Shown piece by piece: positions 86-63,400 of a stretch of 64,000 bases of DNA (position 1 is its first letter; every line of letters begins with the position of its first letter). The notes under the pieces were generated by a model. The model saw only the letters and a list, made by a program, of their open reading frames with translations, had not been told where the DNA came from and did no database searches. The position numbers and the translations under genes are program-made. The stretch is from positions 8,401,599-8,465,598 of the forward strand of contig CAJINV010000001.1 in the NCBI GenBank assembly GCA_905178155.1. The letters run 5' to 3'. Source of the DNA: Amoebophrya sp. A120 (taxonomy: Eukaryota; Protista; Dinoflagellata).

Positions 86-1861
86 TCATGCGTGTTTCTG
101 TTTTCCATAAATAATCTTTAGAATTTTTCTTTGCCATGTAGAGCAAGTTTCCGTTGCTGAAGTTCCAACAGATGTGCAAGTAACTGTAACACATTTTTTC
201 ATCCTGGATACGATGTCATCGAACGAGAGTATCAAAGGCCGGATGAGATCGTAAAGCAGAGTCCCGAAGTGCTTGATCAGACCGTCAAGCGAGTCCTGCG
301 GGTGTCGCGCGTCGAAGTAGGCCAGGAAAGTTTGTTTCTCTAAAATACAGAGTTTCAACACGTAGGTGGAGATCTGTCGGATGCAGGCGCTGGGGTCTTC
401 TTGGAAGTTCACCATCACGTTTTGCATGTGCTGCTGCAAGGGACCGGACACCAAGCGAATGCGCATCTGCACGAAAAAGTTTTCCAGCTCGTCCAGCGCC
501 TGGCCGTAGATGTCCGCGCCGTCGCGTCTGCGGTAGAGCTGCTGCGCCAGCGGCTTCATGTGGGTCGCCGCAGCGCGGAACCGCACGTAGAAAACTGACG
601 TCTCGTACCTGTAGTTGTTATTTGAGAGAACGACTCGAATTCCGATTGGAACAAGTCTTGTACTAGCGGCCAGGGGCCCAGGGGCCAGGGGAGAAGTTTT
701 CTCGATTTTATTCATCAATCACAATGAACAAATTCTTTCTCCTCTTCTTCCCGATACCCGCTTTTCCCGCCCGCCGCGGACTCGACTTGTTCCAAAACCT
801 GCTCTAGTGTCCGCTCCAAGTTCCTACAGACCTGCGTCTTGAGCATCTGGCACGCACGGCGGCGCATTTGGTCGTAGTCGCGCAGATACTGCTTCGAGTC
901 GTAGTACTCCGGATGCCTTTCCAGAAACGCTATGCCGTCGTCCAACGCATCCAAACACCGCTCGAATTCGTCCGTCGGAGCCGAGTGGGGGCCGCGGTCG
1001 AGGATCCGCTGCAGGTCCACCACACGGTCGAACTTCTCCAGCCTCTCGCTGATCGACTTCGTGTACTCTTCCAGGACGTGTTGTTCTTTCAACAAGTGTT
1101 CGCACTGGTGGTGTAGCACGTCGTATCCAGTGTAGAAACGGACCCACCCCAATTCTGCATGCCCAGTATAATGTGTGTCATGCGGCACTCCATGAAGATG
1201 AGAGGCAGTTTCTAGTGATGCTTGGAACAAATCTGTCGTGCGCTAAACAGGTCAAGACAGTGGATTTGTATTTATGCGTTTGAATTAGCTAGACACGACT
1301 ACACTGCATAACCAAGTTTGTCATACGTGAGCCGGACAAGTTCTTCACGATTTGTCTTGCAAAACTTCCATCTTGACTCTGGGATGGGGACGTTTTTACA
1401 CAGGATACGTCGCATTTGTGCGAGACTTCGCGCCGAAAATGCTCCACCTGCTCCAATTTTTCAAAAGCGAGCGCAAGGGAATCGCAGACCTGAGAGGCGA
1501 ATAAGGAGGATGAGTATGTTAGAGAACTTTAGAACATTGGTCTGCTTCTTGTGGAACTGCGCCCTACGTGCAGCTGAGGAGGTCTCACAGCATTTACAAC
1601 AAGAACAGCATGCCAGGCAAAAATCATCGAATGAAGCCGCACCTCGTGACAAAGTTGCTGGTGGTGGAAAATCCAGCCCCAGTTCGTCAGATAGGCCAGC
1701 GACTCCGTTTCCTCTTCGTATTGCCGCTCCATTTTCTGGAAGAACCGGTAAAAGTCCTCCTCCTTTACCGGTTTGGAACTTGAGGAAGAGGACGACGCCG
1801 TCGCCACCATGGCTGAAACATCCTCCAGCAGTGCCTGCTGCCTCTGCGTCAGGTTCGCCAT
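86..1861 (-). CDS. COG3: Conserved oligomeric Golgi complex subunit 3 (Sec34), multi-exon, 3' end unresolved or off-window
   Basis: Spliced translation gives EVSHKCDVLHHQCEHLLKEQ, LDALDDGIAFLERHPEYYDSKQYL, FYVRFR and GTLLYDLIRPLI, matching COG3/Sec34 motifs. GT-AG introns at 1490-1642 and about 609-757, plus an introner at 1124-1407. Confidence 0.85.
1124..1407. mobile_element. Introner (family B TIR), non-canonical intron in COG3
   Basis: Starts TATCCAGTGTAGAAACG and ends CGTTTTTACACAGGATA. Perfect TSD CGTCG at 1119-1123 and 1408-1412. Removal of element +5 bp gives HKCDVLHH in frame. Same family as 5401-5680, opposite orientation. Confidence 0.9.
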
Positions 1862-2648
1862 ATTGTCCTTTGCTCGTCGCGCGCAGAAGTTTTCTGCGCT
1901 GCAGCAAGGAGTGCTGATGGAGAAAAATCAATAACGTATCATTTTGCAGGGCATACAGTCTTCAGTAGACGTAGCCTGATGTAGTTGGGAGGTAGAACAT
2001 TTACCGGCTCTTGGACTAGATCTAAAGCGGAGAAAGAACTGCAGAGCGTTGTAAGAATAAGAACTTGAATTAATAGCTGTTGTAGTTGTCGCTGTAGCAG
2101 GAAAATTAAAACGACTCGTGTATACATACCACGTCGGGCACTTCTGACCTATTTCCGGTTTTGCGTTTTCTTTGCCAGATAATTTTCCACTAGAAATGAT
2201 TCACGACAGATTCAAGATCTCCATCTTCTTCTTCGCAAGCCGAGACACAACAGATACTAGCGAAATTAATGGAACGACCACGAGAAAAAGGACTTACAAC
2301 CACGATTTTTCGCAATGAAAGCCTAGTCTTCCTAATCAAAAACCAAACCGACCTTTCCAAAACGAAAAGCTGACCGACGTCACCAGAGGCACGAAGCGTG
2401 AACAAGAAACAGCAAGTGCTCGTCGTCCAAACTGCGTGTCAGCAACAGGTCGATGAACCTGACCTGACAGCGTGGCGATGGACATGTTTCGCATACTTCG
2501 TCGTGCGCGGCACGATCAAGTCGTGAAAACGGGTGAGATTTCTTGGAATTGTTCACAAAACTCTTCAGGAGCGTGCCAGGGCTTCAAGCTCAATCATTCA
2601 AGCAGCGCTGCTAATAAACGTACTACAAACAGCGGCTTCCTTCTATTC

Positions 2649-5600
2649 CTAGAATTCCATGGGCGCATCTAAGCCAGTTCCGTGAAGTAGTTGCTCTTCC
2701 CGCGCGAACTGCAGGTAGTTCTCCTGATCCAAGTATTTCGAGATGTTCACGTCCTCGGCTAGGCCCTTTCTTCTGCGCGTCTTCAGCATGAATTCCCGTG
2801 CCAGGTGCGGTATGGGTGCGGGCTCCAGCGGGCGCAGGAGAATGGACCGGTCCAGAGGATCGCCGGGTACCTGGGACCAGTGGTCGAACCAGGTGACCAC
2901 CATGGCTTGCCCGTTGCAGTGCGACCGCAAATCGGTTTCGAACCCGAACGACTCGATGACCGGCAGGTAGGCCTCCACGATGTACAAGGGGGAGCCTGGT
3001 TTCGGGAAATCTCGGGCGACGTGCCCCCTCCTCCGCGACAGAACGGTGTACACGCCCTGCACTGAGTCGGCCGGACAAGTGACTTCCGCAAAAAACACCG
3101 GCTCCATCATGCGTGGCGCAGCCATCAGAAAGGCGGCGTAGCTGCACCGTCTGGCGCACGGAATTAACTGACCGCCGCCGCGCATCTGCGGGTTCTCGTG
3201 CAGTCTCGCGTCCAGAAGCTTCCACTTCACACCCCGGATCGCCTCGTCGCATAGTGGACCTGATATTACGTTTTTTATGAAGATCGCGCCCGGAGGGCGA
3301 TATTGGTAACCAAATGCGTGCGCGAAAATCTAACCAGCGCGAAAGCCAAACCAGCCGCGCCACGAAAGCGCGGCCCTGCGGGCCGCGCTTTCGCCGCGCG
3401 GCTGCCACCACCATTTCTTTTTAATATAGAATCCCACTTCTTCGCCATTTATCGCGGGCCATCGGGGGCATCCGGATTCGCATTCAAAGCTTATCGCAGG
3501 AGCCTGCGGGCCGCCGCGGGCTCCACCACTTCCCCGCGGCCCTAAAGGGCCGCGGACAACTACTGTCGCCCGCGGCGGCCCGCAGGCTCCTGCGATAAGC
3601 ATTGNNNNNNNNNNNNNNNNNNNNNNNNNNNNNNNNNNNNNNNNNNNNNNNNNNNNNNNNNNNNNNNNNNNNNNNNNNNNNNNNNNNNNNNNNNNNNNNN
3701 NNNNNNNNNNNNNNNNNNNNNNNNNNNNNNNNNNNNNNNNNNNNNNNNNNNNNNNNNNNNNNNNNNNNNNNNNNNNNNNNNNNNNNNNNNNNNNNNNNNN
3801 NNNNNNNNNNNNNNNNNNNNNNNNNNNNNNNNNNNNNNNNNNNNNNNNNNNNNNNNNNNNNNNNNNNNNNNNNNNNNNNNNNNNNNNNNNNNNNNNNNNN
3901 NNNNNNNNNNNNNNNNNNNNNNNNNNNNNNNNNNNNNNNNNNNNNNNNNNNNNNNNNNNNNNNNNNNNNNNNNNNNNNNNNNNNNNNNNNNNNNNNNNNN
4001 NNNNNNNNNNNNNNNNNNNNNNNNNNNNNNNNNNNNNNNNNNNNNNNNNNNNNNNNNNNNNNNNNNNNNNNNNNNNNNNNNNNNNNNNNNNNNNNNNNNN
4101 NNNNNNNNNNNNNNNNNNNNNNNNNNNNNNNNNNNNNNNNNNNNNNNNNNNNNNNNNNNNNNNNNNNNNNNNNNNNNNNNNNNNNNNNNNNNNNNNNNNN
4201 NNNNNNNNNNNNNNNNNNNNNNNNNNNNNNNNNNNNNNNNNNNNNNNNNNNNNNNNNNNNNNNNNNNNNNNNNNNNNNNNNNNNNNNNNNNNNNNNNNNN
4301 NNNNNNNNNNNNNNNNNNNNNNNNNNNNNNNNNNNNNNNNNNNNNNNNNNNNNNNNNNNNNNNNNNNNNNNNNNNNNNNNNNNNNNNNNNNNNNNNNNNN
4401 NNNNNNNNNNNNNNNNNNNNNNNNNNNNNNNNNNNNNNNNNNNNNNNNGACCTTCACGCCTCCCGGCGGTTGCCCTATATGGTAACGGCAACTGCCTTCG
4501 CGCTGCGTTTGCTAAGCAATATCGCAAGCGCGCAGAGCGCGCGCGCCGGCTTCGTGGGCCGGCGCGTTTGGTTACCAGATCACCAGAAGTTTTGGAAATG
4601 CAGGAGCTATTCACGCATGCAATTTCCACGTTGCACATGGTCGCGTGCTTCTAAGCACATAGAGCACACACGGCCCTCTAGTACTGTCGCATTGCTTCTA
4701 GCAACGGATAAGTGCATCTGCATCTTGACCTACTTCGTGCTCTTACCCGGCTTCGGCTATTAGTATATACAGCTGAAACTGATTACTTTACCTTCTCGAC
4801 TTGCCCACTGGAACCCCTGCACGATGCTGTCCTTGCAGGTTTGCAGCAGCTGCTTATTCACATCCAGCGTATCGTTCAAGAGCATGTTGCAGCCGCGATC
4901 CGTCGGGCCAAAGCCCCAGATGCCCATGGCCGCGAGCAAATCCCACTGGTGCTCGTTCCGGAAGTAGTCCCGCATTTCCTTGCTGCCGAGCTCCCACGTG
5001 GGCAGGATGCGCCCTCGCTCGATATCGTCGTGCTATTGTGAGGAAAAATGCCCCCTCCCCATATCGAAAGCGAAATTTGTGCTGCTGTATTTGAGTACAC
5101 AAATCGCATTTGTCTTGCTGGAGAGGACTGCAGACCCATATCAAGCCGGAGTAGAGAGGCTTTGACTTAGGCACTTAGCATGAAAAGCGTCCGTGATGTT
5201 GGCTCAACAGCATGACAAACCGCCTCCATAATGGGACGGAAGCTGCTGCCCTTGTCTTCTTGCAACACAAACGTGATTTGTGACCTCAAATCAGCAACAC
5301 AAATTTTCGAAAACCTACTTCCCCAATATGGGGAGGGGGGATTTTTCCTTGCGATACGTGCACGGGTTTCTCCAGCGGGTCGCAGGTCATGAAGAGCTTG
5401 TATCCTGAGTAAAAACGTACCCACACCAGAGTCAAGATGGGGAATCGGCTAGACAAATCCACAAGCTTTGGCTGTTTTGCATGACAAATTTGGATTCGTA
5501 GCGTAGTGCTGTTTGAGCTAGCTCAGCAGCATCACAGATCTAGCATACCATGCTGATTGGAGCATGACAAATTGCAAAACATGACTAGAAAATGCTTCTC

Positions 5601-8600
5601 ATGGAGCTCCGCATGAGAAACATTTTCAGCATGCAGATTTGCATTACAACTCTGGTGTGGGTACGTTTTTACTCAGGATAGCTTGTTCTGTTTGTTCATG
5701 CTGTCGGCCTGGCATTTCATGCTACTGGTTTCGGACACTGTTTCTTGGAAGGACACGATGGGGTCGGAAACCTTGATTTCCAGATCGCCGTAGAGTCGTC
5801 GTAAGTCGTGCAATACGCAGTCCAGGTAGAGCTCGCCCGTGCCTGTAGAAAAGTCACAATTTCAATTTCATCTCACATTACGTTGGCAATAAGGCGTGGT
5901 GTTCTGATGAACCAGAAGGAGCGAATGAATGGAAATGGATTCAAGTGCCCTACGTAAAGAAACAAATTTTTCCATATAGTCAATACAGTTCTGTTGTATC
6001 TCTACCTTGTATGACGTGTTCTCCGCTTTCCTCTACTTTCGTGTAGCAGATTGGGTAACTCTTGTCGATTTTTCTCAACCCCGCGACCATCTTTGGCAAC
6101 TCGGAAGGATTCAGTGGCTCCAGTGCGATTTTGCAGCAGGGGGTCGTGCTGTGCGCCAGGGGACGGAAGATTTCGATTTCTTCTTCGATGTCCTGACTTG
6201 TGATAGTGCTGGTCTTCACGATCGTGCCGTCGACGCCCCCAATCAGGACCCAGTTTCCGGCAGGCACGTGCGAAATCTCGACTCGATATCGGCCCTGCGA
6301 GATCCAGAGCGACTGCGCCACGCGGTTCGACCGGTCTTCATCGTCAGACAGCGAGTAGTTCTCACCCAGGACTTGCACGCGGTCGCCCTGTTTTTGATGA
6401 ATATTTATTCAGCGTTAGATCATGGTAGGCCGGATCAGGTGTACTCAGTCTGATACATAGATATCTATGTAGAGAAACGAAAATCATGTAGTTGTCCTGT
6501 CGTACAACGATACCGTATGCAGCGTTCCGCTCATCACCCTCCCCAGCACATCGAAAGTGCTCAGATCTGGGTGGTGGTAGCACTTGACTGTGTGCACCAC
6601 GAGCTCTCCCTTGGGGTCCAGTGCGAGCATGTCTGTCGCGACTTTCCCGGTCTGGTCTCCTGTGTACGTCCTGTGCACCTTCAACTCGGCCATCGTGCGC
6701 GGGTTTCGGATGTGCTTCACCACCGCATCCACCAGGGCGCTGTTCCCCTGGAAGAAGTGCTTGCCGACGGATTTCAGCATGTTCTTCGTGGACATCTTGA
6801 AGTCGCGCTTGGGCATGTAAATCCCGACGGATTCGTAGATCGGAATCAGCGTTTCCTTTTCTTCCCCCAGCGTGTGGCCGATCAGTTTGTACAGCGGCTC
6901 CAGGATAAACGCGACGAATGTTCGCACCGGGTCCTCGAAGTCCTCCGGTGGCTCGCGGGCGAACTTCCGCGTCTCCTCATTGAAGTAAATGTCGCCCCAA
7001 AGGAGCGGCGCGAATTCTTTCCGGTCGAAGCTGTTACCGTACGTGTCGGCGTAGCTGTTTTTGATTTATTCTTGGGAATCCACATTTACTTACATAGATT
7101 ATAGCAAATACACATCGAAACCTCTCCTCAAGTAGGCTTCACCTTCAAAAAGGTTCCCATAAGAAACTACGCACAAAGTCGAATAGTAAGCTAGTAGCAA
7201 ATTCAATACATGGACGCGAAGCTGCCCAGAGAAAAGACGAAGTTGAAGAGGCCCGCGGCGAAAATGACGTTGCCCTTCGTTGGGGATAAAATCTTGCGCT
7301 GCGCCGGCACGTTCAGCATGGTGTGGATGTTTTCCAGGCAGGTGTTCACCTCGTCAATGGTGTGCTTGATTTTGTGGTAGGCGTCCGCCGGCGGGAGCTT
7401 CAACTCCGTGACCAACCGGTCGATTTTGTTCACGCACAAAACCACATCCAGTCCCTCCTGCACGACGTGCTTCAGGAGCCGCTCGTCGTGCGCGCCGACC
7501 CCCATGACCACGTCCACGACGAACAGAACCCCGTCCGAAATGCGCACGCCGGCCACCACCTCGTCTTGGAAGTTCGGGTGGCCCGGGGTGTCCATCAAAT
7601 TGCACAGGTAGGTCTTGTCCGTGCCGTCGGGCAACAAGAGCGAGATCGGGCTCGCTTTGATGCTCAATCCGCGTTCTGCTTCGTCCCTTCTCGAATCCAA
7701 AAACCGCATCGATTCCTGCTGCTTCGCCTGGCTGTCCTTCAGCTTCGTAGACTTAAATTCGTGGGTCTCGCGGATGGCGCAATCCACCAGCGTGGTCTTG
7801 CCGCTCTGCAAATGCCCAACAACCGCAATGTTGCGGATCAGCTCGGGCTCCTGCATAATGCCCGCCATGTAGTCGAACTTGAACGACGTGTCCGGAATCT
7901 GATTTTCATACGAATAAATTTGCACGTGGAGAATGCCGGTGTAGCAGGAGGTGAAAAATCAGTACATTTCGAAAATCAAAGGTCAAGCAGGGTATTTAAA
8001 CATCAACAAGCAGCACTAGCACACTACTGGACTAAAACTTCTCCTGTTCCGCCCACTAGTCAGAAAACTTTCCCTTATCCATACCTGCTTCTCGATGAGG
8101 TCGAAGTCGAACACCCGTGCTGGCGGGATGATTGGCTCCGTGATCGGCATGGTATCCTCTTCCTGTACCAACACCACCGCTTCCGGGCCGTATATCTCCT
8201 CCGCCTCTGGGTAGTACTGCTTGTCTTCGTGGAGCACCACCGCTCGTTTCTCTGGTGGCAGGTCCGGGATCACCGGATTCACCGCGGCCGCGGCCGAAGC
8301 CGCCTCGTCCATGCCGGAGGCGGCGTAGCCCCCGCCCGGCATGGTGCTGCCCACATCGACATCATCGTCCAGGTCCTCGTCGTATCAAATGCAAAAATGT
8401 CTGGGTCTGGAAGAATGCAACTTGTCATGCTAGATCTGAAGCATGCAAAAATCTGTGTTGCATGATTACCAAAAGTCGTCCAGTTTTGACCAAGTCGGGA
8501 GGGAGTTTCTCATGCAGGATAGGCATGAAAGAGATCGCACAGAATCTGTCATGTTAGGCCCTGCATTCCAGACCTCATGGGTCATGGAAAACCTGCGTGA

Positions 8601-8711
8601 CAAATCTCGCAATCTTCCAGACCCAGACATTTTTGCATTTGATACGTCGCTGTCGTCCGACAAGTCGCCGCCGATGTAGTTTCCGAACTCGTCGTACGCG
8701 GATTCGTCCAT
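2649..8711 (-). CDS. EFTUD2: U5 snRNP 116 kDa GTPase (Snu114), about 9 exons
   Basis: [15 protein letters not shown]-terminus; [16 protein letters not shown]; [11 protein letters not shown]; NKIDRL; [20 protein letters not shown]; RGGGQLIP; [10 protein letters not shown]; [16 protein letters not shown]. All are diagnostic of Snu114. Confidence 0.97.
3489..3600. repeat. Perfect 33-bp inverted repeat with nested hairpins
   Basis: GCTTATCGCAGGAGCCTGCGGGCCGCCGCGGGC (3489-3521) and its reverse complement (3568-3600). The loop contains CCGCGGCCCT-AA-AGGGCCGCGG. Confidence 0.9.
3605..4448. other. Assembly gap
   Basis: Run of N. Confidence 1.
5034..5356. mobile_element. Introner (family C TIR) in EFTUD2
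   Basis: TATTGTGAGGAAAAATGCCCCCTCCCCATAT...ATATGGGGAGGGGGGATTTTTCCTTGCGATA. Perfect TSD CGTGC. Removal restores EKPVHDDIERG. Confidence 0.9.
5401..5680. mobile_element. Introner (family B TIR) in EFTUD2
   Basis: Perfect 32-bp TIR TATCCTGAGTAAAAACGTACCCACACCAGAGT. Perfect TSD GCTTG. Removal restores [15 protein letters not shown], which aligns with Snu114 NKKNKITMIAEPLEK. Confidence 0.95.
8383..8644. mobile_element. Introner (family A TIR) in EFTUD2
   Basis: Perfect 32-bp TIR TATCAAATGCAAAAATGTCTGGGTCTGGAAGA. Perfect TSD CGTCG. Contains an in-frame stop. Removal gives [12 protein letters not shown]. Confidence 0.95.
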
Positions 8712-10132: not shown

Positions 10133-10388
10133 CTGTGAGGTTCCAATTTATTTCAGGAACTTATTTCGTATATATTTATTGTGAGTTCCAATCTTAGGAA
10201 CGAAGGTCAAGCGCCACGCTCGCCTATCATCATCATCATCTAACTGCACTGGGGGGGGAGCGTGCAATGGGTTGGGACCTGGTTCAAGTTCAACTTTGAG
10301 AGCAAGTCACAGTCAGGGCACAGCACGACTTGCTACGACTTTCGAGTCCATCTATGATCAAGACTTTTTTCTCGTGCTCTTTTCGCGA

Positions 10389-15698: not shown

Positions 15699-15822
15699 GG
15701 TCTGCAGCTGGGCGCCGACCTGAACCTTGAACCCCTCGATGTGGTTCTAGCATGCCCCGACCCGCCTCTGCATTTCCTCGCGCGAGGTGAGCATGTCCTC
15801 GCGCAGCGTGGCGAACTCCGTA

Positions 15823-23151: not shown

Positions 23152-23258
23152 CGGGAAACGGCCACCGGGAAACGGCCACCGGGAAACGGCCACCGGGAAA
23201 CGGCCACCGGGAAACGGCCACCGGGAAACGGCCACCGGGAAACGGCCACCGGGAAACG
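23152..23258 (+). repeat. 14-bp minisatellite, about 7 copies
   Basis: Unit GGCCACCGGGAAAC. Confidence 0.95.
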
Positions 23259-23264
23259 GGAAAC

Positions 23265-23525
23265 GACAAGCCAAAAAATTTTGCATGCAAGCCAAAAAAA
23301 TTGGAAAGACGGAATATTTCGCGACTCGAAATAAATATTTTGCAAGCCAAGAAATTTTGCAAGCCAAAAAATTTTGCAAGCCAAAAAATTTGGCAAGTCG
23401 AAATATTTTGCAAGCCAAAAAATTAATTTTGCAAGCCGAAATATTTTGCAACCCAAAAAATTAATTTTGCAAGTCGAAAAATTTTGCGAGTCGAAACATT
23501 TTGCGGGCCGCAAGGTTTTGCAGCT
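23265..23525 (+). repeat. Degenerate AT-rich ~18-21-bp tandem repeat
   Basis: Recurring ATTTTGCAAGCC(A/G)AAA. Confidence 0.85.
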
Positions 23526-23602
23526 CTCGAAAAATATTCTGACCAGGAAATATTTCGCAACAACCTTCCAGAGCAACCGACTCCCCCGCTTTTGCAGCTT
23601 TG

Positions 23603-24205
23603 AAAGCGGGAAGCACGGGCAAAGCGGGAAGCACGGGCAAAGCGGGAAGCACGGGGGAAGCGGGAGGCACGGGGAAAGCGGGACGCACGGGGAAAGCGGG
23701 ACGCACGGGGAAAACGGAAAGCACGGGGAAAGCGGGAAGCACGGGGAAGGCGGGAAGCACGGGGAAAGCGGGAAGCATGGGGAAACAAAACGGGAAGCAC
23801 GGGGAAAACGGGAAGCACGGAGAAAGCGCGAAGCACGGAGAAAGCGCGAAGCACGGGGAAGGCGGGAAGCGCGGGGAAAGCGGGAAGCATGGGGAAAGCG
23901 GGAAGCACGGGGAAAGCAGGAAGCATGGGGAAAGCGGAAAGCACGGGGAAAGCGGGAAGCATGGGGAAGGCGGGAAGCATGGGGAAAGTGGGAAGCACGG
24001 GGAAGGCGGGAAGCACGGGGAAGGCGGGAAACACGGGGAAGGCGGGAAGCACGGGTAAGGCGGGAAGCACGGGGAAAGCGGGAAGCACAGAGAAAGCACG
24101 GAGAAGGCGGGTAGCACGGGGAGGGCGGAAGGCACGGGGATAGCGGGAAGCACGGGAAAGGCGGGAAGCACGGGGAAAGCGGGAAGCCCGGGAAAAGCGG
24201 GACAC
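23603..24205 (+). repeat. 18-bp purine-rich minisatellite, about 33 copies
   Basis: Unit GGGGAAAGCGGGAAGCAC with point variants. Confidence 0.95.
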
Positions 24206-38977: not shown

Positions 38978-41900
38978 TCAAGTTACATAATCCGATTTGT
39001 TTGCCCCTTCAGCATGATGGCACCAGCAGGCCGCTAGTCTGAAACTATAACTACCTTTCTTGTTCACATCAAAACACAGAATTAGTACCGCAGCCTCGCT
39101 CTCCCTTCTCAGTTGCTGGAAGCAGGCCTCTGCGGTTTGTGGAAACGAAGAATTGCTTGCGGACGGGGACCCCTGCTCCTCGTATCCCTTGGGCCCTCCG
39201 ACCTGCTGCGCCGTCTGGTCCCGGAGAAGTGTGGTGCCGGCAACAGCGCCGCCCGCCGTACTGGCACAGTCGTTGTACTGCGAATTCGGATAACCTAGGC
39301 TTGTCGCGGTCGACGTCCCCATCTGCGACGAGTTTTGTTGATGCTGCTGATCGAGGTACGGGGAGCCCTGCTGGATTTGCTGTTGCGGTGGACCTGCGGC
39401 TCCACCCAGAGGTGGCTGGTACTGCAGGACCGGCACGCCATTCAAGGCCGGCGTTCCCGTCACCTGCGGCGGATGGTGCTGTTGTAGTTCTGTTCCGACA
39501 GCAGCCCCCGGAGACTGTTGGTACTGCAAGTTTTGTTGCAGCTGTTGCTGGTCCAAGTACTGTGGCGGCTGCTGCGGACCTCCGATCTGCGGACCACTTG
39601 GACTTCCCAACGGTTGCTGCAAAGCGTGCTGTAGCTGCTGCTGCCCCGGCGTCATGCCCTGGTGTTGTAACTGCTGCTCGTTATTGTTGTACGCCGGATT
39701 GTTGTTCATATTCGTTGTTCCACCTAACTGCTCTGCTCCTATCGGCATCTGCGACCCCGGCGGGCCACCCCCTCCGAGCGGCTGCGCCGTGTTGTACGTT
39801 GCTTGCGGGAACAACTGTTCCCCGAGCGTTTGCGGCTGCACTTGATTCTGGTTCGTGGTGTACAAGAGTTGGTTGTCAAGCGGCTGCAGATTCGGACTTT
39901 GGTTCGCAGCCACGAACTGCTGATTTTGCGGATCGACCGGAAGCAGCTGCTGCGGCATGGGCCCCCCGGGAAGATGCATCGGGTCCTGCGGACCAGCGGC
40001 AGAGCTTGCTCCAGGAAACTGCTGCATGTTTGGCCCATTGTCCGGACCACCCGCGTAGTGGTCTAACGGCTGCTGCTGCGCAGGCTGCTGCTGCGGCGGT
40101 CCTGCTACGCCCATCTGGTCATTCCGCTGGTCCCACGCAGCAGCCTGGTTCGTTCCCTTGTTGCCGTAGTTATACTGCTGGTCGTTGTTGTAACTGTTGC
40201 CCTTACCGTTGTGGTACTTGTCTTTCCCGCTGCCTTTGTAGTTGTAATGATGTCCACCCTTACCGCCCCCGCCGTGGTAGTCTTTATCGCCCTTGTATGA
40301 ACTGTTGTAACTACCGTTGTCGCCTTTATACAACGAGCCGCCGTAGTTGTAATTCTTCCCCTTGCCATACGAAGAACTACCGTAGTGGTCACTCTTTCCG
40401 CCCTGATACCCCCCGCCACCGCCTTTGTTGCTGTACCCGTACGCAGGAGACCGCCCGCCATAGTCATTGCTGTAGCCGCCACCTTTGTGCTGTCCGCCAC
40501 CGTAACTGCACCCCCCTTTGTGCGCACCCTTGTTGTAGGAACCTTCTTCTTCTACCGAGCCGCTGCGATCGAACGAGGTGTCGCCATTGTAGCTGCCGTC
40601 GTTGTAATAATTGTTGCTTTTCCCGCCGCCGTAGGAATCGAAGTTTTGCTTTCCGTACCCGTAACCCTTTTTCCCACCGCCATACTTGTCCTTCGAAAGC
40701 GCACCCTTCTCCTTCCCCGACTTCTCGCCCAAGTATTCATACGAAATTTGAATTTCCCGGACGCGTATAATGATGCGGTTTCTGCATGACAGACCTTTAT
40801 TCCGTTCTTTCATCCTTCAACCCTATTCAGCATGACAAGAGGCGTGAACTTCTAAGTTGGCGAAATTTCAAATGCGTTCTTTTGTACGTGTACGGGAATA
40901 AAGCTGTATCGCATACCCAGCCCTCACCGTAGATGAAGCCGGTGGAGCCGCCCTTAACTTCTTCGAAAGTGAAATGGTCCTTGCCCAGCACGTATGCATT
41001 GCAAACGTTTCTGGGTCTGGAAGACTCATGCTGTTTTTGCATGACACAGAAGGCCCGGCATGGAAGCTCTAGCGTCACAGGTTTCCAGAAGCTTCCGCAA
41101 TGCCGAATCCGCATGACAAGTGCCCCACTTTGGTGACAGAAAGTGGGCAACTTTTGCTGCCTAAGCATGAGAGATTTTTCTGTGTTCTGAAATGCGCATC
41201 ACAAGTTTGCATTCTTCCAGACCGAGACATATTTGCAGTTCATAGCATGTACCCGATGGAATGGCCCTTGTCTCCCTTCTTACCCTTGCCGTAGCCTTTT
41301 TCTGTTTTGGTGAGTCATTGGAGAACACTTTTCTCGAGAAACGGGAACACAAAGGACCACGTCCTCAAAGTTAAGTAGTTGATAGCTGGGGCTGTTCCTG
41401 TTGTTACACAGCGAAGAGCAAGAATTTTGAAGATTAGATGCACAAACTACATCGCAAATCCAATACTTCCCTTCCCGCCGCCTCCCTTGCCCTTCTCGCC
41501 GTCGTCATGCGGCTTGTACTGGCCGATGGTGAGAATCGAAGCGAAGAGCTCGTTCTGGTACTTGTGGTCCAAGCAGCTATCAATCAGGTCCTCTTGCCAC
41601 TTACCTGTTTAGAACATTTTGGTGATGAAGAGTGCGTATCAATTTGTGATCCAGAAAACGACGTCCTCGCACCATGCGATCTGATGATTGAAAATGCATG
41701 TTGCGCGATTTCTGCACGTCGAGAGCTGCTTACCACTGGGGTGCGGCAAAATTCCGAACTCGTGGGGGTGCCCGAAGACCATGGTGGTAGTCCAGCTGAT
41801 GCTGCGAACGTGGAAGATATTGCCTGGAATATTACATATGTTGCATTTATCTTTATGATCTTCCGGATGCAAATGCGAAAAATAAGCATAACGACATGTA

Positions 41901-42548
41901 CAACTACAAAGGTGGTGGTCATCTTCGTCCTGCAGAAACATCACAAACAACAGAATATGAATAAATATTCCTGTCAATAAAAAGCTCACAGTGCTCGACA
42001 GTTCCGAACTTCTTCAGAATGCCGTCCCGCAAGTCCTCCACCCACAAGTCCCATCGCGAAAAAACCCCGCGCCAAAAATCCTGCGCAGCCACGATCTGCT
42101 CCGGTGTGGAAAAACTGTACGGACCCTGATTTTTATGTGTTGGGAACCAAATAAACACGACGCTGTGCAGACAAACGAAAACTTCACCTTCTTCGTTCCG
42201 ACCTCGCTAAAAAAATCGGAATAATTTATAGATGCGCCTCCGCCTTCAAATAAAACTGACACACTTCGACGTTCGATTTTCATCAGCGCAGCTGTTTATA
42301 GTGTACAACCCCTTTACAAAAAAAATCAACCCCCTTAGTACCACTTGCACTCGTCGGTCGAACCGGAACCCCGGTAAGGTGCCCAACGCCGAGGCGATCA
42401 GTGGCACGTAGACCCAGCTTTGCGTTTTGGGGATCTTCCCGCCGAAGATCCGAATTTTCACGTCCTGTTCCTCGAAGCCAGGCACAGAAACCCAGGGCAG
42501 GTCCCGTAGCGACTCCAGGCCTCCGCCGACTCCGCCTCCGCCGGCCAT
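38978..42548 (-). CDS. Hypothetical protein with long G/Y/K/N-rich and Q/P-rich low-complexity C-terminus, multi-exon
   Basis: 611-codon ORF plus upstream exons joined in frame through two introners (GYMLGKDHF, GEGWGEKS). Linkage of the 5'-most exons is inferred. Confidence 0.65.
40734..40915. mobile_element. Degenerate introner
   Basis: TAT...ATA ends, TSD CCAAG/CCCAG, weak TIR and two GCATGACA motifs. Removal of element +5 bp restores frame. Confidence 0.65.
40993..41244. mobile_element. Introner (family A), opposite orientation to 37095-37345
   Basis: TATGCATTGCAAACGTTTCTGGGTCTGGAAGA...TCTTCCAGACCGAGACATATTTGCAGTTCATA. TSD GCACG/GCATG. Interior is a near reverse complement of the 37095 copy. 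Confidence 0.92.
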
Positions 42549-43189
42549 GGCGTGCTGTGCGTCCTGTCGTCCCTAGAAGCAGACAAGGACAGCGACAACA
42601 CGATTCGAAAAAAATTACTCCGTCAAAGACGTTCCATCGCGACAGAGGCCGAGAACTCTGGTTTGGAATGTGACAACGAAGAAGAAACGAGCGCAACACC
42701 GCGGAAAGGGACGAACAAACAGACCAATATGATACTTATTAATTCTTTGCCGATGCTGGTGCTCTTCACCACAAGAGGTGATGCGGAAACCCTCACTCTT
42801 CTGCCAGAATAGCACCATCGCTCAGAGGAAACTACACGCTGGAAATCAACTTCTCTGAAACAGGTCCCTCTGCTTTCCAAGTGAGTCCACAACACTCAGT
42901 CAGTGGGAGGAAAAACCTTATCTTCGAAAATGGAATCTCAACGTCTCTCCACGGTTGTAGATGTCTACTTCTTGACTCACCCCCTTCCAGATTAAGTAAA
43001 CCACACGACTCCTTCTATAGACATGCTGCGGAGAACATCCAAACCAGCCGCTCGCACCAAACGGACACGACGGAAGACACTCCGTAAAAATTGCTTGCGC
43101 TCGCTCTGCTGCAGACAGAACGAAATGAACTCGAAACCGGAACCACGCTTGCCGGAAACTACGACAATTCGAAATAATCATACACACAG

Positions 43190-46100
43190 CTAGTCATCTT
43201 CCGATTCACTGCTGCTTGCCACGAGCTTCTCCCCCTCGGGCAGACCGGATGCAAGGATCGCGTCAAGCTCGTCCTCCTCTTGCTCTAGCTCGCCTATGCC
43301 GCTGCCAACGTCGTTTATCTGACATATCTCCACGTCGTAGTATACCTGGTTGATGAGGGATTTTTTGCTTGGGATAGTACCCGTGTATCTTATACCCGGT
43401 TGAGGGATTTTTTGGTTTGGTATGAATTCCGCGCCCGGTCGGGCGATACGGTAATCAATCGTTGCGCTGTTCACTTTGCGAAGAAAAAACCGCGACGCGC
43501 GCATTCCGGCGGCCGCGCCCGCGCGAAAACGGGAGGCGCAAACTATTCGGGCGCCAGAGAGGAACGAGCCCAAGGCGCTGCAAAGAGTGGAACGGATCAA
43601 GGGCGCCCCTTTGAGGGGCGGGTCGGGCTGCGCGCGGGTGATCGCGCGAGAATCCAAAAATTTTGGCGCGCCATACCGTCGCGCCTAATGTTACCCCGCA
43701 CGGTATGGCGGGCGCGTGATTTTTGCTCATTTTCGTGTGGGCTTTTTTTGGTTCATTTCTTGCATTTTTGCGGAGGGCGCTTTTGCACCTCAAACGCGAT
43801 GGCATTCGGCTTGATCAGGCGGAGGCCTCCGTCCCGAAAATGGCAAAACGTTACACCTCTAAACACGACTATACGCTGACTAAGCTTTCAGCGTGCCGCC
43901 GTGTTTGGCGGCCTGACAAATTTCGGATTGAGCGCAAGGCCCATTACAAATGGGCGATTTTTTTTCATTTTTTCATTTTTTTCTTGCGAAAGACGACGCT
44001 ACTGCGGACCCACGGAGGGTCCAATTTCGCTACTTTTTCGCAAGCGTACCGGGGGGATTCGCGACACAAAAAAACTCTCATTTTCCGGATACCAATGCGC
44101 CTATGGACGCAAAAATCACCATTTTTACACCTTCCCCCGGTGGGAGGCTGCGTTTTTGGCGCACCTTTTGGCCGCCCACGCGGCCGACCCCGGTTCCAGC
44201 TTAGCAGGCCCTTCCCCCGAAGCTACTGCCCCACTTTGGGGGGCGCCCCTTTGTTCCATCTAGATCCCCCGTAAGGTAATCCGCCGTCGCTTCCTTGCTT
44301 CGCAAATGGGAAGCGGCTTCGCCGGGCCCGGGGGGGCGGGGGGGCTTCCGCCCCCCCGGGCCCGGCTCACCCGAACGCAACGATTGATTACCGATAATAC
44401 CTGGTTGAGGGATACCCGTGTTTTATTTGAACACGCAAAATGGAGAACCAGAAGTGGCGGCACAAATGGTGAAGAAACTCGGGGTTGCCGGCAGGCAAAG
44501 ACAAATACGAGTACCCGCGTGTTGGGTGGTATTACTATCCCGGCGCCCCTGGACCCGTAGGCGTAGAAAGGGGACACGGATATTTCTGCTTTCTCGTGCA
44601 GGGACAAGCCTAGCACGCCCTCGTCGAGGCCGCGAACCACCTCGCCGTTCCCAACCACAAACTCGAAGGACTCTTTTCTCTCCCTCGTATCGTCGACCGT
44701 CTTCCAGTTTTTCTTCCCCTTGATTTTCTCCTCCGCGGTGAGGTCGACGTAGCGCAGGGTGTAGTGTATTCGGATGGTGTCCTATCAAGCAAAAAAACAC
44801 CATCACAATCACATCTAGGAGGTTTTGCATCAGAAATTTCTCTCGCATGACAAATTTTTGTTGTATTGCAAAAACACAAAGGGAAATCATCAATAAGTCT
44901 TGACTGTGATGCATTTTTGCGCATGACAAAAAATTTTGTATTGCAAAAATGTGCAAGAGTGATTGTGATGGTGTTTTTTTCTTGAATATGTCCCCCTTTT
45001 CCACGATGCAGTCCGGGTCCTTGTCCCGGCCTCGAACAATCTTGGTGACCACGATGTTGTCCAGCACTTCCTCCTATCAAATGCAGATATGTCTCGGTCT
45101 GGAAGATTTCTAGATTTGTCATGCTAAACAGAAGTGCGACACACTTTGCCTCCCCCTGTGCAAACGGCCGCAGATGGCTGTCACGCAGGGAAGGTGGGTC
45201 AGGCGGACACCGAAGTGCCATCGCCATCATCTCCCGGCCACTATACCAACTCGCCAACTATACCAACTTTTTTGCCTCACTTTCGCCAACAACGCCAACG
45301 ATTCCTACTCGCGACACATATAGAAAGCACAACCAGGACACCAGCAACAAGGATACTGGACCCTGCAGCACGGCTTTCATGTTAATCTATGGATAAATCA
45401 CATACGCCAAAAACATAGAAGAGAGTCAGAGGCGCTGTTTAGCTTCATCCAATGATAGGCGAGAAGCGGGCGTCGATGTGAAGAGCCCAGGCGGAGCTCT
45501 GGCGTGTCCTAGCAGCCGGTCTCTCCGCCGCGCCGGTCGTTCCTCCTACCACTTCGCTGGCTGCCGCCGCTGGGGCAAATACTTGGGGCCGAGGAATTTG
45601 CAGCAACACTTCTGGTCGTTGAGTGCCCCTACACATCTGGTCGTTGCGTGCTACGGGAGTAGGCCACACGTTGGGCCTACTGCTGAAAACTCCTCTAGCC
45701 CTGCCGCATTTGAGGAGACTCCTGCCGTTCCTTTCCACTCTGTGGCTCGCGATCCGTGCGCGCCTTCCGGCTGGCTTAAATGAATAGGCGCGCGGCTGCT
45801 CCAGCCCGCTGCCCCGGAGGTCATGATTTCGGAGTTGGTGTTTGGCGCTTCTATGTAGAAGCTAGCTCCTGCTACGAGGACGAAATTGAAAGTAAACAAG
45901 GACAAAGAAGATGGAGATACAGAAAGAAAAGAGAAGGAAACGGGTTCTAGATTTGTCATGCATATTTCCCATGACCCATGATGTCTGTGATGCATGCCGT
46001 GGCATTACAGATTTTTAGAGCGCTTTGTGATACCTCTACAGCATAAGAAATGCCCTCTCCGCGTGGCACAAACTGGAGTCCCCTTGCTGGTCATGCAATA

Positions 46101-46232
46101 CAAATTCTTTCAGAATCCAGAGACAGCATCACAAGTTTAGAATGTTCCAGACCCAGACACTTTTGCAATTCATACCTCCTCCTCACTGGAGACATCGAAA
46201 TCATCCACGACGAAGTCTTTGTAATTAGCCAT
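43190..46232 (-). CDS. FKBP-type peptidyl-prolyl cis-trans isomerase, 4 exons
   Basis: Spliced: MANYKDF...VEKGDTIRIHYT...FEFVVGNGEVVRGLDEGVLGLSLHEKAEISVSPFYAYGSRGAGIVIPPNTRVYYDVEI. Confidence 0.92.
43421..44393 (-). mobile_element. Helentron/HINE-like or MITE element in FKBP intron 43346-44514
   Basis: Perfect 18-bp IR CGGTAATCAATCGTTGCG (43449-43466 and 44376-44393). External hairpin CGCCCGGTCGGGCG and an internal ~19-bp GC hairpin at 44321-44366. Confidence 0.7.
44783..44988. mobile_element. Introner (family E TIR) in FKBP
   Basis: TATCAAGCAAAAAAACACCATCACAATCAC...GTGATTGTGATGGTGTTTTTTTTCTTGAATA. Perfect TSD TGTCC. Removal gives KGDTIRI. Confidence 0.92.
45075..46174. mobile_element. Introner (family A) in FKBP carrying a nested insertion
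   Basis: Family A TIRs at both ends and perfect TSD CCTCC. Length is 1100 bp, or 263 bp after removing the nested insert plus one 17-bp repeat. Confidence 0.9.
45125..45944. mobile_element. 820-bp insertion flanked by a 17-bp TSD
   Basis: TTCTAGATTTGTCATGC at 45108-45124 and 45945-45961, with a purine-rich right end. Confidence 0.8.
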
Positions 46233-47225
46233 TTTTGTTGACGTGCAAAAAACCTGATAGGATGAAGAACAAAAGTACTAGAAACGCAAACTGTATTCTC
46301 AATCTCAAGCAACTTCAACTACTACACTCTCTTCGGGCGGCACTCGAAACATCAAGTGCGTGGTTAACACCAAACGATAACGAGCAAGCTAGCTACCAGT
46401 ACCACACTATCGAGTTGGTGATTCGGAAATTGGAAAATAGTTCACCTGCGCACGAAACAAAGCACAGTTGCCGAACAGCATCGTTGAGGAGGTAAGAGTT
46501 GGCATTTTTATTTTTGCGCTGTGAACGATACAAGCTGTTAACTGCGATTCTTTCTCTTCTACTTGGTAGAGTAAAACCTCACTGGTACTCGGTCGGCGCT
46601 TCAAAAAAACATAAGGTAGTCACTTTGAATGTCGAGTCTCATATAATCCGAGCACACTCCTAGTTTTGTTCTTATGCACTTATTGTCAGTCACGGATAGG
46701 CGATGCGGCTCAACAGGGCGAAAACTGAGATCTAACCAAGCACTCTCATCTCGTCTTCCGGGCTGTCTGTGGGCTTCGAAGTGGTAGAGGGCAGCACTTA
46801 CTCTACTTTATTGCGAACAGTTCTGCAGATAAGGGACTCTCCTGTGCATCATGGCTTTTGCTCCATCCAGCACTATGCCATGCAGTAGGCCGCAGCCGAC
46901 TTCTTTTTTATCTTCGCAGCAAGTTTCATGCTCAGCCGATCCCTTGCGTTGCCACCCCGTGCTCGGCCGGTCGCGCCGGCGCGGCACGTCTTCCGTTCTT
47001 GTCTTTCTTGTCAGCAGGAACTTGCAACTACCTGGTCCGCAGATCATGCTGAGGCGGTCGGGGTAAGTTGTTTTGAAGCGAAGACTTTTGCACACAATCC
47101 ACGACCCCACGTCACCAGAACCGCGATTGTATTCCTCACTGGTGGTTGCCGGGACTTTGTGCCAAGAAGTTCTTACCGTCAGTGCGCCATGAACAACCGC
47201 GTTGGTCACTACAACAAGCTTGCCC

Positions 47226-52900: not shown

Positions 52901-53525
52901 GCTTGTATTCGTCGTACGTGAGCCAGGTGTACTTGTTCTCCAGCTCCAACTTTTCAAATTCCTTGCCACCCGGGGTGTCTGCGACCATGGTATGCATTGC
53001 AAATATGTCTGGGTCTGGAAGGGTGGTGGAACTTGTGATCCTGTCTGCGGATTCTAAAAATATGTGTGTTGCATGAGCAGCTAGAGGAGTCCAGTTCTTG
53101 GCCTGCGGAGAGGGCATTCTTCCTGCGTGATAAGCATTACTTAAGCACCCCTCAAAAAACCTGTGATGCTAAGACCTGCGTCACAGACCCCACAGGTCAC
53201 GCAACACGTGCATGACAAACCACGACTCTTCCAGACCCAGACATATTTGCAATCCATACATGTGCGTTTTGATCAACTTCCGGTACCCCGCGCACTTGTC
53301 CTTTCCGCCCCGCTTGCAGCCACTGACAAACACCTCCACCACCGACTTTTCCCCGGTTGGCAGGGTCTTCTTGATGGCAAACGTCCCATCCGCCTTGCGA
53401 TTCTGGGCGTGGTAGAGAATGGGCCCGTACCCCTCCGGCTTGTTGTTCGTTTTCTCGTCGAACAGGCCCCAAGGCGGCGGGCTCTGGGGCATGTCCTCCA
53501 CGGGGAGGGAGGCGCTCACGCCCAT
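49910..53525 (-). CDS. Long-chain acyl-CoA synthetase (ACSL3/4-like), multi-exon
   Basis: AVIMYTSG|TTGAPKGV, LPMAHIMEL, SGSAPL, YGLTET, PRGEILIGGP and WFRTGDIG...IIDRKKDL. Confidence 0.95.
52991..53258. mobile_element. Introner (family A) in acyl-CoA synthetase
   Basis: TATGCATTGCAAATATGTCTGGGTCTGGAAG...CTTCCAGACCCAGACATATTTGCAATCCATA. TSD CATGG/CATGT. Removal gives KTHMVADTPG. Confidence 0.93.
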
Positions 53526-60400: not shown

Positions 60401-63400
60401 TTGTCGAAGTTGTTGTGCTAGTCGTCGTCGACGACGTGAATGTAGTCGTCACTGTGCTCGTCGTCGTCGTCGTTGTGGTCGTCGTCGCGCCCGGCGCCAG
60501 CGTCGTCGTCGTCGCGGCCGGGTCTAGCGTTGTCGTAGTGGTCGTCGACGTGGTCGTCGTGCCTGTGGTGGTTGTGCTTGTCGTGGTTGTGACGGTCGTG
60601 GTAACTGTGGTGGTCGTCACTGTCGTCGTTGAGCTGGTCGTGCTCGTCGACGTCGTGATCGTCGTCGTCACCGTGGTAGTGGCGCCTGGCACGTAAATCG
60701 TAGTGGTCGTCGTGGTCGTCAACGTCGAGGTGGTGGTGGTGGTGGTCGTGGTCGTTGGTAGCGCGCCCATCAAGCAACTTTGGGTCTCGGTGTCCAGCAA
60801 GTCGTCCAGCGCCCGCTGAAACTTGTTCGTGATCGGCCGCGACGTTTTCGGACTGTTCCAGTTCGCCGGCGTGAGGGAATTCCGGAGCGCCTGCGCCACC
60901 GCGGGAACCGACGCGGGCTGGAGGCCGAGCACGACCGCGGGGAAGGTCACATTGTAGACGGCGTACGCGGTCGGGTCGGCCGCGCCGGGACACTCCGGGT
61001 CGGCCCGCAGCTGGTACCGGTTGGCCGGCACGAACTCCGGCGAGTACACGTCAAACGCCGGCACCAGCACCGCGTAGTTATCCACCAAGTACGCAAACAA
61101 CGCGCCCAGCAGCACCGGCGCCACCTCCGTCCGCAAGCACGCCGCGTCGCAACCAACCAGAATCAGCTCCTGCCAGAAATCGAACTGGTACCCGACCAAC
61201 ACGATCGTCGTGGTCGACGTGGTCGTCGACGTGGTGGTGGACGTGGTTGTTGTCGTGGTGCTCACCGTGGTCGTGATGGTGGAGGTCGTCGTGGTCGACG
61301 TCGTCACGGTGGTCGTCGATGTCGTGGTGCTCGTCACGGTGAAGGTCGTCGTGGTACTGGTCGTCGTCGTGACCGTCGTGGTACTGGTGGTACTCGACGT
61401 GGACGTCGTCGTGCTCGTTGCCGTCGTGGTGGTCGTGGTCGTCGTCGTTTCCGTGCTCGTCGTCGTGAGCGTTGTGGTGCTAGTGGTCGTCGAGGTGGTG
61501 GTCGTGGTGGTCGTCGCGGTCGTGGACGTTGTCGTGGTGGACGTCGTCGTGGTCGTGCTGGTTTCCGTGAAGGTTGTCGTGGTCGTCGTGGTGCTGGTAC
61601 TGGTCTCCAGGGTCGTCGTGGTCACGGTCATCGTCGTTGTGGACGTCGTGGTCGTGGTACTGGTGGACGTCACCGTGGTGGTCGAGGTGGTGGTCGTGGT
61701 CGTGGTCGACGTGGTGGTGGTAGTCGAGGTCACCGTCGTGCTGGTCGTCGTCGTGGTCGACGTCACGGTCGTCGTTACGGTCACGGTGGTGCTCGTGGTG
61801 GTGGTGGTGGACGTAACCGTGGTGGTGTCGGTCGTCGTGATCGTTGTGGTGGAAGTGGTCGTCGACGTGGTCGTCGTGGTGGACGTTTCGGTGGTGGTGC
61901 TGGTCGTGGAGGTAGTGGCCGTGGTCGTCGACGTGGTGGTCGTGGTGGCCGTCGTCGTGGTGGAAGTCGTCGTGGACGTGGTCGTGGTTGTGTAGGTCAC
62001 CGTCGTGGTCGTCACCGTCGTGGTGGTCGTGGTGGTGGTGGTGGGCAGTGCCACAAACCGCTCCGGGTCGTACGGGACCAGGTTCCCGTCCACCATCCGC
62101 AACCCGGGGCCCGCCGCCCCCGCCGCCCCCTGGCCCTCCTGCGCCGCGTAAAAGTTGCCGTACAGCGCCGCCTCCAGGTACGGCCGCATGCGGATCCGCC
62201 CGCCCTTCAGCGCCAGGTCCTCCTCGAACGCGTACGCGATCGCGTCGTGGATTATCAGCGCGTTCTCGTACGTGTCAACGCCCACGAGCTGAATGCGGAA
62301 GGAGTGGAACTTGGCGAGGGGATATCAAACGCAAAATTCGATCGATGTTTCTGCGATCTACGGATCACTCATGAGGTAATACTTTGTGATGCGCAACAGC
62401 TCGTAGGCGCCTTGGAGACTATTGGCAAAGAAGTGCTGTCACGGAGGACGAGATCAGTTCTTTTACACTTTACATGATGGTTGGGCCCTTCTTTGGAAAA
62501 ATATTTGACCCGAGCTACTTCCGGTGCATGCAGGATGTATAACGTCGTACAAAAATGTAAGTAAGGCATTTCTACTTCGCACAGAAACCACATCAAATTT
62601 TGCATTTCATAACGTTTCCCCGTCTGCTTTAGGACCGGGTGGCACACAGATGCTTTCCGGGCTAAGAGCGAACATACCGTATTCGGTGGCGTCCAGGAAA
62701 CCGTCTTGAGTCGCATCGATGCAGGTAAACAGTTTCTGCGCAAACGCCATGCGTTCGTTACTTAGATCACCGCCGAAATACTCCGCCTTTTGGAACTCAC
62801 TCAGCTCAATTCTTGTGGCCGGGTTTGATATGGGGCCGCTTACAAGTCCGATATCCGAGGAGGGGTTTGAGGTTCCGATATCCGCGTAGGTCGGCAATGT
62901 GGTCGGCAGCTGCGCAAGCAAGTTCGTGAGCGACACCGTGTAGGTTAGGCTGACCACATCCCAGGTGTGCTTGCAGTCACAGAACTATACTCAAGCAAAC
63001 CGCGCGAGTCGGTCCTGTGATAAGAACGTACCTCGTTAAATGCATCTTCGTCCACCTCTGCTTGACAGCGGCAGAGGATTCCGTCCTCGGAGCCTTTGAT
63101 ATTCAGTGGCTGTGCAAAGATTATTTTGTGCGAATATGTCGACTACCGCATGACAAAATTCTTCAACTTCCATGGTACGCCTATAAGGCAAAAACAAGGA
63201 AAACGACCGTGCAAGAAGAAAGTGTGGACCACCACTTCTGGATCGTCTTTCCACAAGTGCAACAATGACCAGGGTAATTATATCTATTTGTCATCACTGA
63301 GACCGCGCAGCGCGCTTCTTCTCCAACTTGCATAACAAACTGTAATCCACTGGTCGCCCGGTCGAGGACGTCGCTGCGGGCGTCGTGCCCACCAGGCCAC

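Follow-up and report, generated by a model that had tools for sequence, protein, structure and literature searches.

Introner elements of the dinoflagellate Amoebophrya sp. A120 were described by Farhat 2021 (PMC7789003). According to the text of that paper, their ends consist of TAT, 7 nucleotides (nt), and AAA, they are flanked by direct repeats of 3–5 nt (5 base pairs (bp) in the legend of Fig. S19), they form hairpins, and they fall into many families. The same text reports 29,850 introner copies in A120, RNA-supported non-canonical introns making up more than 60% of all introns and averaging about 240 nt, and no transposase inside the introners. A second survey assigns most A120 families, about 105–330 bp long, to terminal inverted repeat (TIR) DNA elements of unknown superfamily (Gozashti 2025, PMC12130899, in its family tables). 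How the A120 elements are spliced and what mobilizes them are two questions that this literature raises (PMC7789003, PMC11282704). Here, we analyze a 64,000-nt stretch of A120 contig CAJINV010000001.1 (positions 8,401,599 to 8,465,598, forward strand; hereafter, the window), in which TAT…ATA elements interrupt coding sequence and are removed from transcripts together with 5 nt of flank. The elements are almost certainly introners of the A120 type; the system is already known and was published by Farhat 2021. A single cut register and a shared internal motif now make both questions directly testable.

TAT…ATA elements and their removal from transcripts

Twelve elements start with TAT and end with ATA at exactly the positions that an initial annotation of the window, made from sequence alone, had reported. 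Eleven are 150–323 bp long, and one is 1100 bp. Their ends are inverted repeats that open with TAT and continue with seven loose bases, and most of these ends, sense and antisense, reach an A-run at about positions 11–15; the pattern is weaker at 40734. In the window, 16 TAT..ATA pairs are complementary at 17 or more of their 25 terminal bases, compared to a mean of 0.66 and a maximum of 3 in 50 dinucleotide-model sequences. The 5-bp flanking duplication is perfect in 7 of the 12 elements and has one mismatch in 4, as the initial annotation had counted. Its count omitted the twelfth element, 62323, in which the duplication is gone (4 of 5 flank bases mismatched). Direct repeats in the 3–5 nt range of A120 introners, with no more than one mismatch over 5 bp, therefore border 11 of 12 elements. 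Within the window, one inverted-repeat family, family A, is common to 8383, 37095, 40993, 45075, and 52991, and 1124 resembles 5401; the remaining elements have no relative there. The annotation's list overlooked a decayed thirteenth element at 62986–63334. The elements are as follows.

1124–1407, minus strand: element in the COG3 gene; perfect 5-bp duplication; 67% like 5401, in opposite orientation; open frame after +5 deletion
5034–5356, minus strand: element in the Snu114/EFTUD2 gene; perfect duplication; +5 junction in protein P0001, no indel versus 16 homologs
5401–5680, minus strand: element in Snu114; 32-bp perfect inverted repeat; perfect duplication; +5 junction in P0001
8383–8644, minus strand: family-A element in Snu114; perfect duplication; +5 junction in P0001
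36889–37038, minus strand: 150-bp element in a glycosyltransferase gene; perfect duplication; 155 nt skipped in 4/4 runs; no canonical reading
37095–37345, minus strand: family-A element in the same glycosyltransferase gene; one-mismatch duplication; 256 nt skipped in 4/4 runs; register 0 to 4
40734–40915, minus strand: element with decayed inverted repeats; one-mismatch duplication; 187 nt skipped in 4/4 runs; register 0 to 2
40993–41244, minus strand: family-A element, inverted relative to transcription; 257 nt skipped in 4/4 runs; register −1 to 3
44783–44988, minus strand: element in an FKBP gene; perfect duplication; 211 nt skipped in 4/4 runs; readable as AT-AC or GA-AG
45075–46174, minus strand: family-A element enlarged by an insert; 1105 nt skipped in 4/4 runs; readable as GT-AG
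52991–53258, minus strand: family-A element in an acyl-CoA synthetase gene; one-mismatch duplication; +5 junction in protein P0125
57154–57426, minus strand: candidate fourteenth, decayed element (TAT..ACA, no duplication), one end TAT and the other of TGT type; +5 deletion lengthens a 1636-amino-acid open frame
62323–62611, minus strand: element with no remaining target duplication; removed at +5 in protein P0121; register 1 to 3 (or −2)
62986–63334, minus strand: thirteenth, decayed element; flanks differ at 2 of 5 bases; P0121 intron of 354 nt (349 + 5); register 0 to 1

Evidence for removal comes from four contig sets (X3–X6) from one sample, covering 36600–46500; they are labeled "RNA?", and their RNA identity is a guess. 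Fourteen joints are listed in this interval: six at elements, seven at ordinary introns, and one, linking two family-A copies, that we dismissed as noise. Because the seven ordinary introns skipped in these contigs are all GT-AG on the gene strand, we take X3–X6 to be spliced RNA. All six covered elements are skipped at exactly element plus 5 nt, each in 4/4 runs (155, 256, 187, 257, 211, and 1105 nt). The initial annotation had proposed that deletion of each element with 5 bp restores the reading frame. That proposal is upheld by RNA at the six elements and by database proteins at five others, namely 5034, 5401, and 8383 (P0001), 52991 (P0125), and 62323 (P0121); at 1124, it has an open frame only. 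The P0125 junction at 52991 reads KTHMV, identical in P0127 and P0128. At 5034, in-frame GT-AG alternatives exist at +2 and +8, yet P0001 uses +5, and the junction has no indel across 16 homologs.

On the sense strand, four of the six RNA-tested elements (36889, 37095, 40734, and 40993) cannot be read as GT-AG, GC-AG, GA-AG, or AT-AC, and thus lack the GT/GC-AG ends of U2-type introns. Removal without GT-AG, a further claim of the annotation, holds for these four; the other two are canonically readable. The assertion that only 45075 can be read as GT-AG needs qualifying: 44783 has GA-AG and AT-AC readings at +5, and 5034 has the in-frame GT-AG alternatives named above, although its database protein uses +5. 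The family-A copies 37095 and 40993, which share 92% identity, lie in opposite orientations relative to transcription, and both are spliced. Removal occurs at element plus 5 nt, and an element can be used in either orientation. On the DNA side, 40734 is present intact, with zero differences, in contig record 2 of DNA run X1.

A raw RNA run, X9, has no coverage of the host genes and was left out of the junction evidence: of its 105 partial reads, almost every one falls on a single family-A end. About 100 X9 reads carry the family-A end (37312–37345) joined to other sequence, and some X9 transcript seems to retain an element end.

Cut register and stem

Searching metagenome contigs for the family-A end returned at least 149 loci (533,232 nt) from one assembly, a set biased to family A. 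Counts below refer to these listed loci unless the window is named. To be called by script, an element needed TAT/ATA ends, an A-run, and 14 of 18 inner positions paired; at least 285 non-redundant elements qualified. A search of these loci for 5-bp duplications around TAT…ATA, of the kind that the annotation had recommended for the genome, gave a clear return: 225 of the 285 have a perfect 5-bp duplication and 261 have no more than one mismatch (shuffled mean 5.5, maximum 12), and duplications of other lengths are near background. Family relatives are up to 96% identical to window elements in this other assembly; 62323 has no relative among the loci. In addition, 18,005 DNA contigs of X1 map to the window, with depth concentrated on the elements. 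Like the published A120 introners, the elements form families repeated across the genome. The elements have the properties of miniature inverted-repeat transposable elements (MITEs): they are short, carry TIRs, make target duplications of fixed length, and have no coding capacity. They are probably DNA transposons of the non-autonomous kind, bounded by TAT and ATA, whose insertion duplicates 5 bp of the exon. An Rfam scan of the window gave no matches, nor did a search of viral contigs with the family-A end.

In elements whose two 5-bp copies are not identical, the copy that remains in the transcript places the cut. We define the register r as the number of bases before TAT that leave with the intron. 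RNA allows r of 0 to 2 at 40734, −1 to 3 at 40993, and 0 to 4 at 37095. Protein models allow 0 to 4 at 52991 (P0125) and, in the case of P0121, 1 to 3 (or −2) at 62323 and 0 to 1 at 62986–63334. The sole register fitting all 12 junctions with data (6 RNA and 6 protein-model) is r = 1, and therefore the intron would be N-TAT…ATA-NNNN. We infer a fixed register, with 1 nt before and 4 nt after the element. In favor of P0121, both of its element junctions lie exactly at +5, on non-canonical bases.

Register 1 allows the boundary bases to be counted. Orientation was assigned with a codon model that was correct for 10/10 window elements; 236 elements were scorable, and 221 passed filters. Their starts are GT in 75, AT in 60, CT in 44, and TT in 42; ends are AG in 19 of 221, and the GT-AG combination occurs in 7 of 221. 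With dinucleotides spread in this way, the boundaries are not under dinucleotide selection. All five reference elements, representing four families, are found in both orientations. Open-frame counts offer no contrast, being 144–153 of 174 for every deletion length.

We lean modestly toward the following mechanism as a whole. With the cuts placed 1 nt ahead of TAT and 4 nt past ATA, one duplication copy's worth of sequence would be discarded and the exon restored. A stem of about 30 bp, running end to end, would join the two ends and fix the ruler. A divergent spliceosome would perform the chemistry; the suggestion is made because, at r = 1, TAT lines up with +2 to +4 of the host's GTA(C/T) donors, preserving the U at +2 (6 of 7 host donors start GTA). 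Finally, the TAT families would be moved by a single transposase lineage, whose enzyme, most likely a DDE protein of integrase-like type close to Ginger2/Tdd, would bind a shared internal motif, GCATnACA. A bolder version, which we entertain only tentatively, is that the elements constitute a second splicing code: the 1+4 TAT…ATA ruler would match the 5-bp stagger of one GCATnACA-binding transposase, landing would be costless in any exon and either orientation, and a U1-free or non-spliceosomal machine would make the cut.

The chemistry invites the strongest alternative, that the same elements and the same 1+4 ruler are served by a non-spliceosomal, structure-specific endonuclease and a ligase, as proposed for Euglena nonconventional introns. 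The elements display neither a dinucleotide nor a branch-like signal, and U1 small nuclear RNA was not found in A25 or A120 according to the text of PMC7789003. In Euglena, a fixed spacer code, N3-CDG..CHG-N5-6, has been tested by knock-in (PMC12501133), and introns leave as circles (PMC11282704). Against such an enzyme stand the U that register 1 retains at +2, the resemblance to the host donor, the presence of nearly all spliceosomal proteins together with U2, U4, and U6 (PMC7789003), and the altered spliceosome that tunicates are described as using for non-canonical introns (PMC13326754). We judge an endonuclease unlikely and keep the divergent spliceosome as the preferred agent.

With respect to how the ends are recognized, an end-to-end stem of 23–34 pairs is predicted for 11 of the 12 elements. 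The annotation had suggested that the TIR stem, rather than the dinucleotides, defines the intron. This idea gains support because boundary dinucleotides are not selected and both orientations of one family are spliced, and fold prediction makes it likely, with 40734 as an exception. Specifically, 40734 has 0.1 predicted end pairs and a terminal pair probability of 0.0, yet it is spliced exactly. Its isolated ends fold at −21.7 kcal/mol, versus −7 to −13 for six ordinary introns.

The splicing of 40734 argues for a different reading, in which a protein at each end reads the sequence itself (TAT, 7 loose bases, A-run), and the ends pair simply because the repeat is inverted. TIR positions 4–7 are likewise variable and paired in only 33–74% of elements, compared to at least 80% at the flanking positions, and TAT and the A-run at 11–13 are common to all clusters, though the scan demanded both. 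Outside the search pattern, family-A ends carry TAT exactly in 154 of 183 cases, shifted in 9, and replaced by TGT in 3; copies with altered TAT thus exist, known from DNA only, and they count against reading by sequence, as does the strong stem predicted for 11 of 12 elements. Fold prediction may, moreover, miss pairs formed co-transcriptionally or held by protein. Recognition by end sequence strikes us as rather improbable, and the stem remains our choice. At TIR positions 4–7, similar 4-mers reappear across families.

Shared motif and mobilizer

The motif GCAT[GCT]A[CG]A was first spotted by eye in the window. It occurs in 279 of 280 elements and in all 21 clusters of a set comprising elements shorter than 450 nt with no more than two duplication mismatches, 269 of them from the listed loci and 11 from the window. 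Elements carry 1–5 copies on average versus 0–0.3 expected. Inside the window, 35 copies fall in the 3,847 nt of elements versus 4 in the 59,309 nt outside. There is no strand bias (317 versus 353 copies in 183 elements, p = 0.18), and the spliced elements 40734 and 40993 have no copy on the sense strand. The UnA core of the motif resembles the branch-point consensus. A branch-point role was nonetheless rejected because strand bias is absent and neither 40734 nor 40993 carries the motif in the sense direction. The motif likelier acts at the DNA level, for instance as a transposase binding site.

Shared termini, duplication length, and internal motif would fit one mobilizer, judged from sequence. 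The initial annotation had attributed all families to one transposase lineage; the TAT…ATA termini, the 5-bp duplication, and the motif in 279 of 280 elements speak for this indirectly, whereas the missing transposase and the other A120 lineages tabulated in PMC12130899 do not. The competing possibility is that several unrelated enzymes mobilize the TAT families, whose ends are alike only through selection for splicing. Farhat 2021 rejected general mobilization by transposase in A120, in the text of PMC7789003, and PMC12130899 lists other A120 classes, such as fam65, a Mutator family with GG/CC ends and 8–9 bp duplications; the scanned open reading frames (ORFs) contain no transposase that would tie the families together. 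Such a history is hard to reconcile with one duplication length and one strand-neutral motif over 21 clusters, and splicing is not likely to have selected a motif that spliced copies lack in the sense orientation. Several enzymes therefore seem distinctly improbable to us. That the elements are lost from DNA or are assembly artefacts, and not spliced at all, is hardly credible: although the RNA label of X3–X6 is a guess, and X1 DNA joints were judged only among the matches listed, so that joined forms are possible for some elements, the same contigs skip seven GT-AG introns, X1 record 2 holds 40734 whole, and the same families with 5-bp duplications recur in another assembly.

Several findings weigh against the mechanism of a stem-measured 1+4 cut and one integrase-like mobilizer. 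Element 40734 is spliced exactly with no predicted stem. RNA taken by itself allows r of 0 to 2; the narrowing to 1 comes from P0121 alone, an unnamed database protein model that has two questionable gaps within repeats. Sorted by direction, the mismatches that separate the duplication copies point toward r ≥ 1 at position 5 (8 versus 2) and oppose it at positions 1–4 (12 versus 19), so positions 1–4 lend register 1 no support. Strong selection on TAT is unsupported, as is a need for it: in family-A ends, TIR positions 8–9 are at least as conserved as TAT, in a comparison for which three of five families were read from columns shifted by one. Contigs hide rare forms, and infrequent retention or mis-splicing would go unseen. 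On the side of the mobilizer, a scan of 132 of the 133 ORFs of at least 240 amino acids in the listed loci, which left out the longest ORF and 171 shorter ones, gave no transposase or integrase match. The annotation had pointed to long copies encoding a DDE transposase as a test; none emerged from the long-element ORFs scanned, six of which gave no Pfam match. The matches of the L059 element's ORF are limited to a close copy of the ORF and one repeat protein, with no transposase among them. No autonomous element with the same ends was found in the window or in the 0.53 Mb of listed loci, and Farhat 2021 reports no transposase found in A120 in the text of PMC7789003.

Two longer TAT..ATA elements in the loci, L059:6182–6996 (815 bp) and L020:505–1608 (1104 bp), have perfect 5-bp duplications and inverted repeats of their own. 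In the window, 45075 had been described as nested. An 837-nt insert is indeed present, between 17-nt direct repeats at 45108 and 45945 (span 45108–45961), but it has no TAT ends of its own. The 17-nt repeats include the GCAT motif, and roughly the first 130 nt of the insert are internal sequence of another family (like L059:1253–1669). The sequence suggests that the insert may have originated by template switching at the shared motif. Its interior, 45160–45873, appears as a separate contig in all four RNA sets.

Host genes, neighboring repeats, and described systems

All element-bearing host genes lie on the minus strand. They encode COG3 (one element), Snu114/EFTUD2 (three), a glycosyltransferase (two), a protein with no Pfam match (two), FKBP (two), acyl-CoA synthetase (one), and a large unknown protein. 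The best protein matches to the hosts, at 99% and 100% identity, are labeled Amoebophrya sp. A120. A25 proteins are collinear across the insertion sites of 5034, 5401, and 52991, in a comparison of proteins only. None of the related metagenome loci overlaps the window host genes. The Snu114 gene (2652–8711), which specifies a core spliceosome GTPase, itself holds three of the non-canonical elements, and because of this the non-canonical route must be efficient.

Other repeats neighbor the elements. A 1169-nt GT-AG intron at 43346–44514, spliced in RNA, contains a GC-rich sequence with hairpins and an 18-bp perfect inverted repeat (43449–43466 / 44376–44393); variant contigs in DNA run X1 suggest that a different, low-copy repeat lies inside it. 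A 1.5-kb GT-AG intron of Snu114 at 3258–4789 has strong GC-rich hairpins flanking an 844-nt assembly gap, as well as an inverted repeat (3297–3317 / 4505–4525), and is possibly another mobile element. At 23280–24850, AT-rich short tandem units (about 23280–23560) precede a GC-rich tandem array (about 23600–24850); part of the AT-rich region matches the related metagenome loci.

The initial annotation's link to Amoebophrya introners proved apt: the TAT/AAA signature, 5-bp repeats, and non-canonical splicing all appear in PMC7789003, and as far as its text goes, there is no difference in kind from the A120 introners with respect to ends, repeats, hairpin, or splicing. That text describes splice sites as variable relative to the hairpin and repeats as variable in length, whereas here a single length (+5) and a single register account for all the data; a phrase in the paper about four nucleotides upstream may mean the same geometry as the 1+4 register. 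A fixed 1+4 register, splicing in two orientations, and a shared motif were not found in the literature searched, which did not include subscription journals, or in the main text of PMC7789003, whose Figs. 3 and S19–S25 may show the register. The tables of PMC12130899 give automated duplication lengths of 2–6 in most rows and 11 in one, with no common register. They list fam2 with N-T starts in 6681 of 9716 copies and A-N ends in 6598 of 9716. The two being about equally common, which is what sliding of the aligner would produce, we did not use these published counts as support for register 1. They also file A120 fam38 under Ginger, with "5-bp TSD [target site duplication], TA/TA termini" and a length of about 810 bp. 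L059:6182–6996, at 815 bp with TAT ends and a 5-bp duplication, fits that description.

Ginger2/Tdd transposons are alike in having TIRs and duplications of 4–5 bp, and here 225 of 285 elements have 5 bp. TDD-4/TDD-5 make 5-bp duplications, and Ginger ends are given as TGT (PMC2836005). The TAT found here is one base from TGT, and the ends differ from the TGTNR of Ginger2/Tdd. Those transposons encode an integrase-like transposase, and none was found among the long-element and locus ORFs scanned here.

Introners of Micromonas and Aureococcus and introns of Fritillaria are, as described, also MITE-derived, with TIRs and target duplications. Micromonas introners bring one splice site and co-opt the other, Aureococcus introners use canonical motifs, and Fritillaria favors AG-AC/AG-AT, whereas window-type elements select no dinucleotide.

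A parallel in operation is provided by Euglena nonconventional introns. As described in PMC12501133 and PMC11282704, they too are not GT-AG, have paired ends at a fixed asymmetric distance, and are of likely MITE origin. Their arrangement is 3 nt + CAG … CTG + 5–6 nt, with a purine opening the exon that follows; the arrangement proposed for the window elements is 1 nt + TAT … ATA + 4 nt. The window elements do not conform to the Euglena code N3-CDG … CHG-N5-6, and so the likeness is one of working and not of membership. The elements here also differ in their TIRs of about 30 bp, high-copy families, and clear 5-bp duplications, and the lineages are unrelated. If the reading proposed here is true, tens of thousands of introns in a eukaryote are defined by structure and distance instead of GT-AG, in parallel to Euglena.

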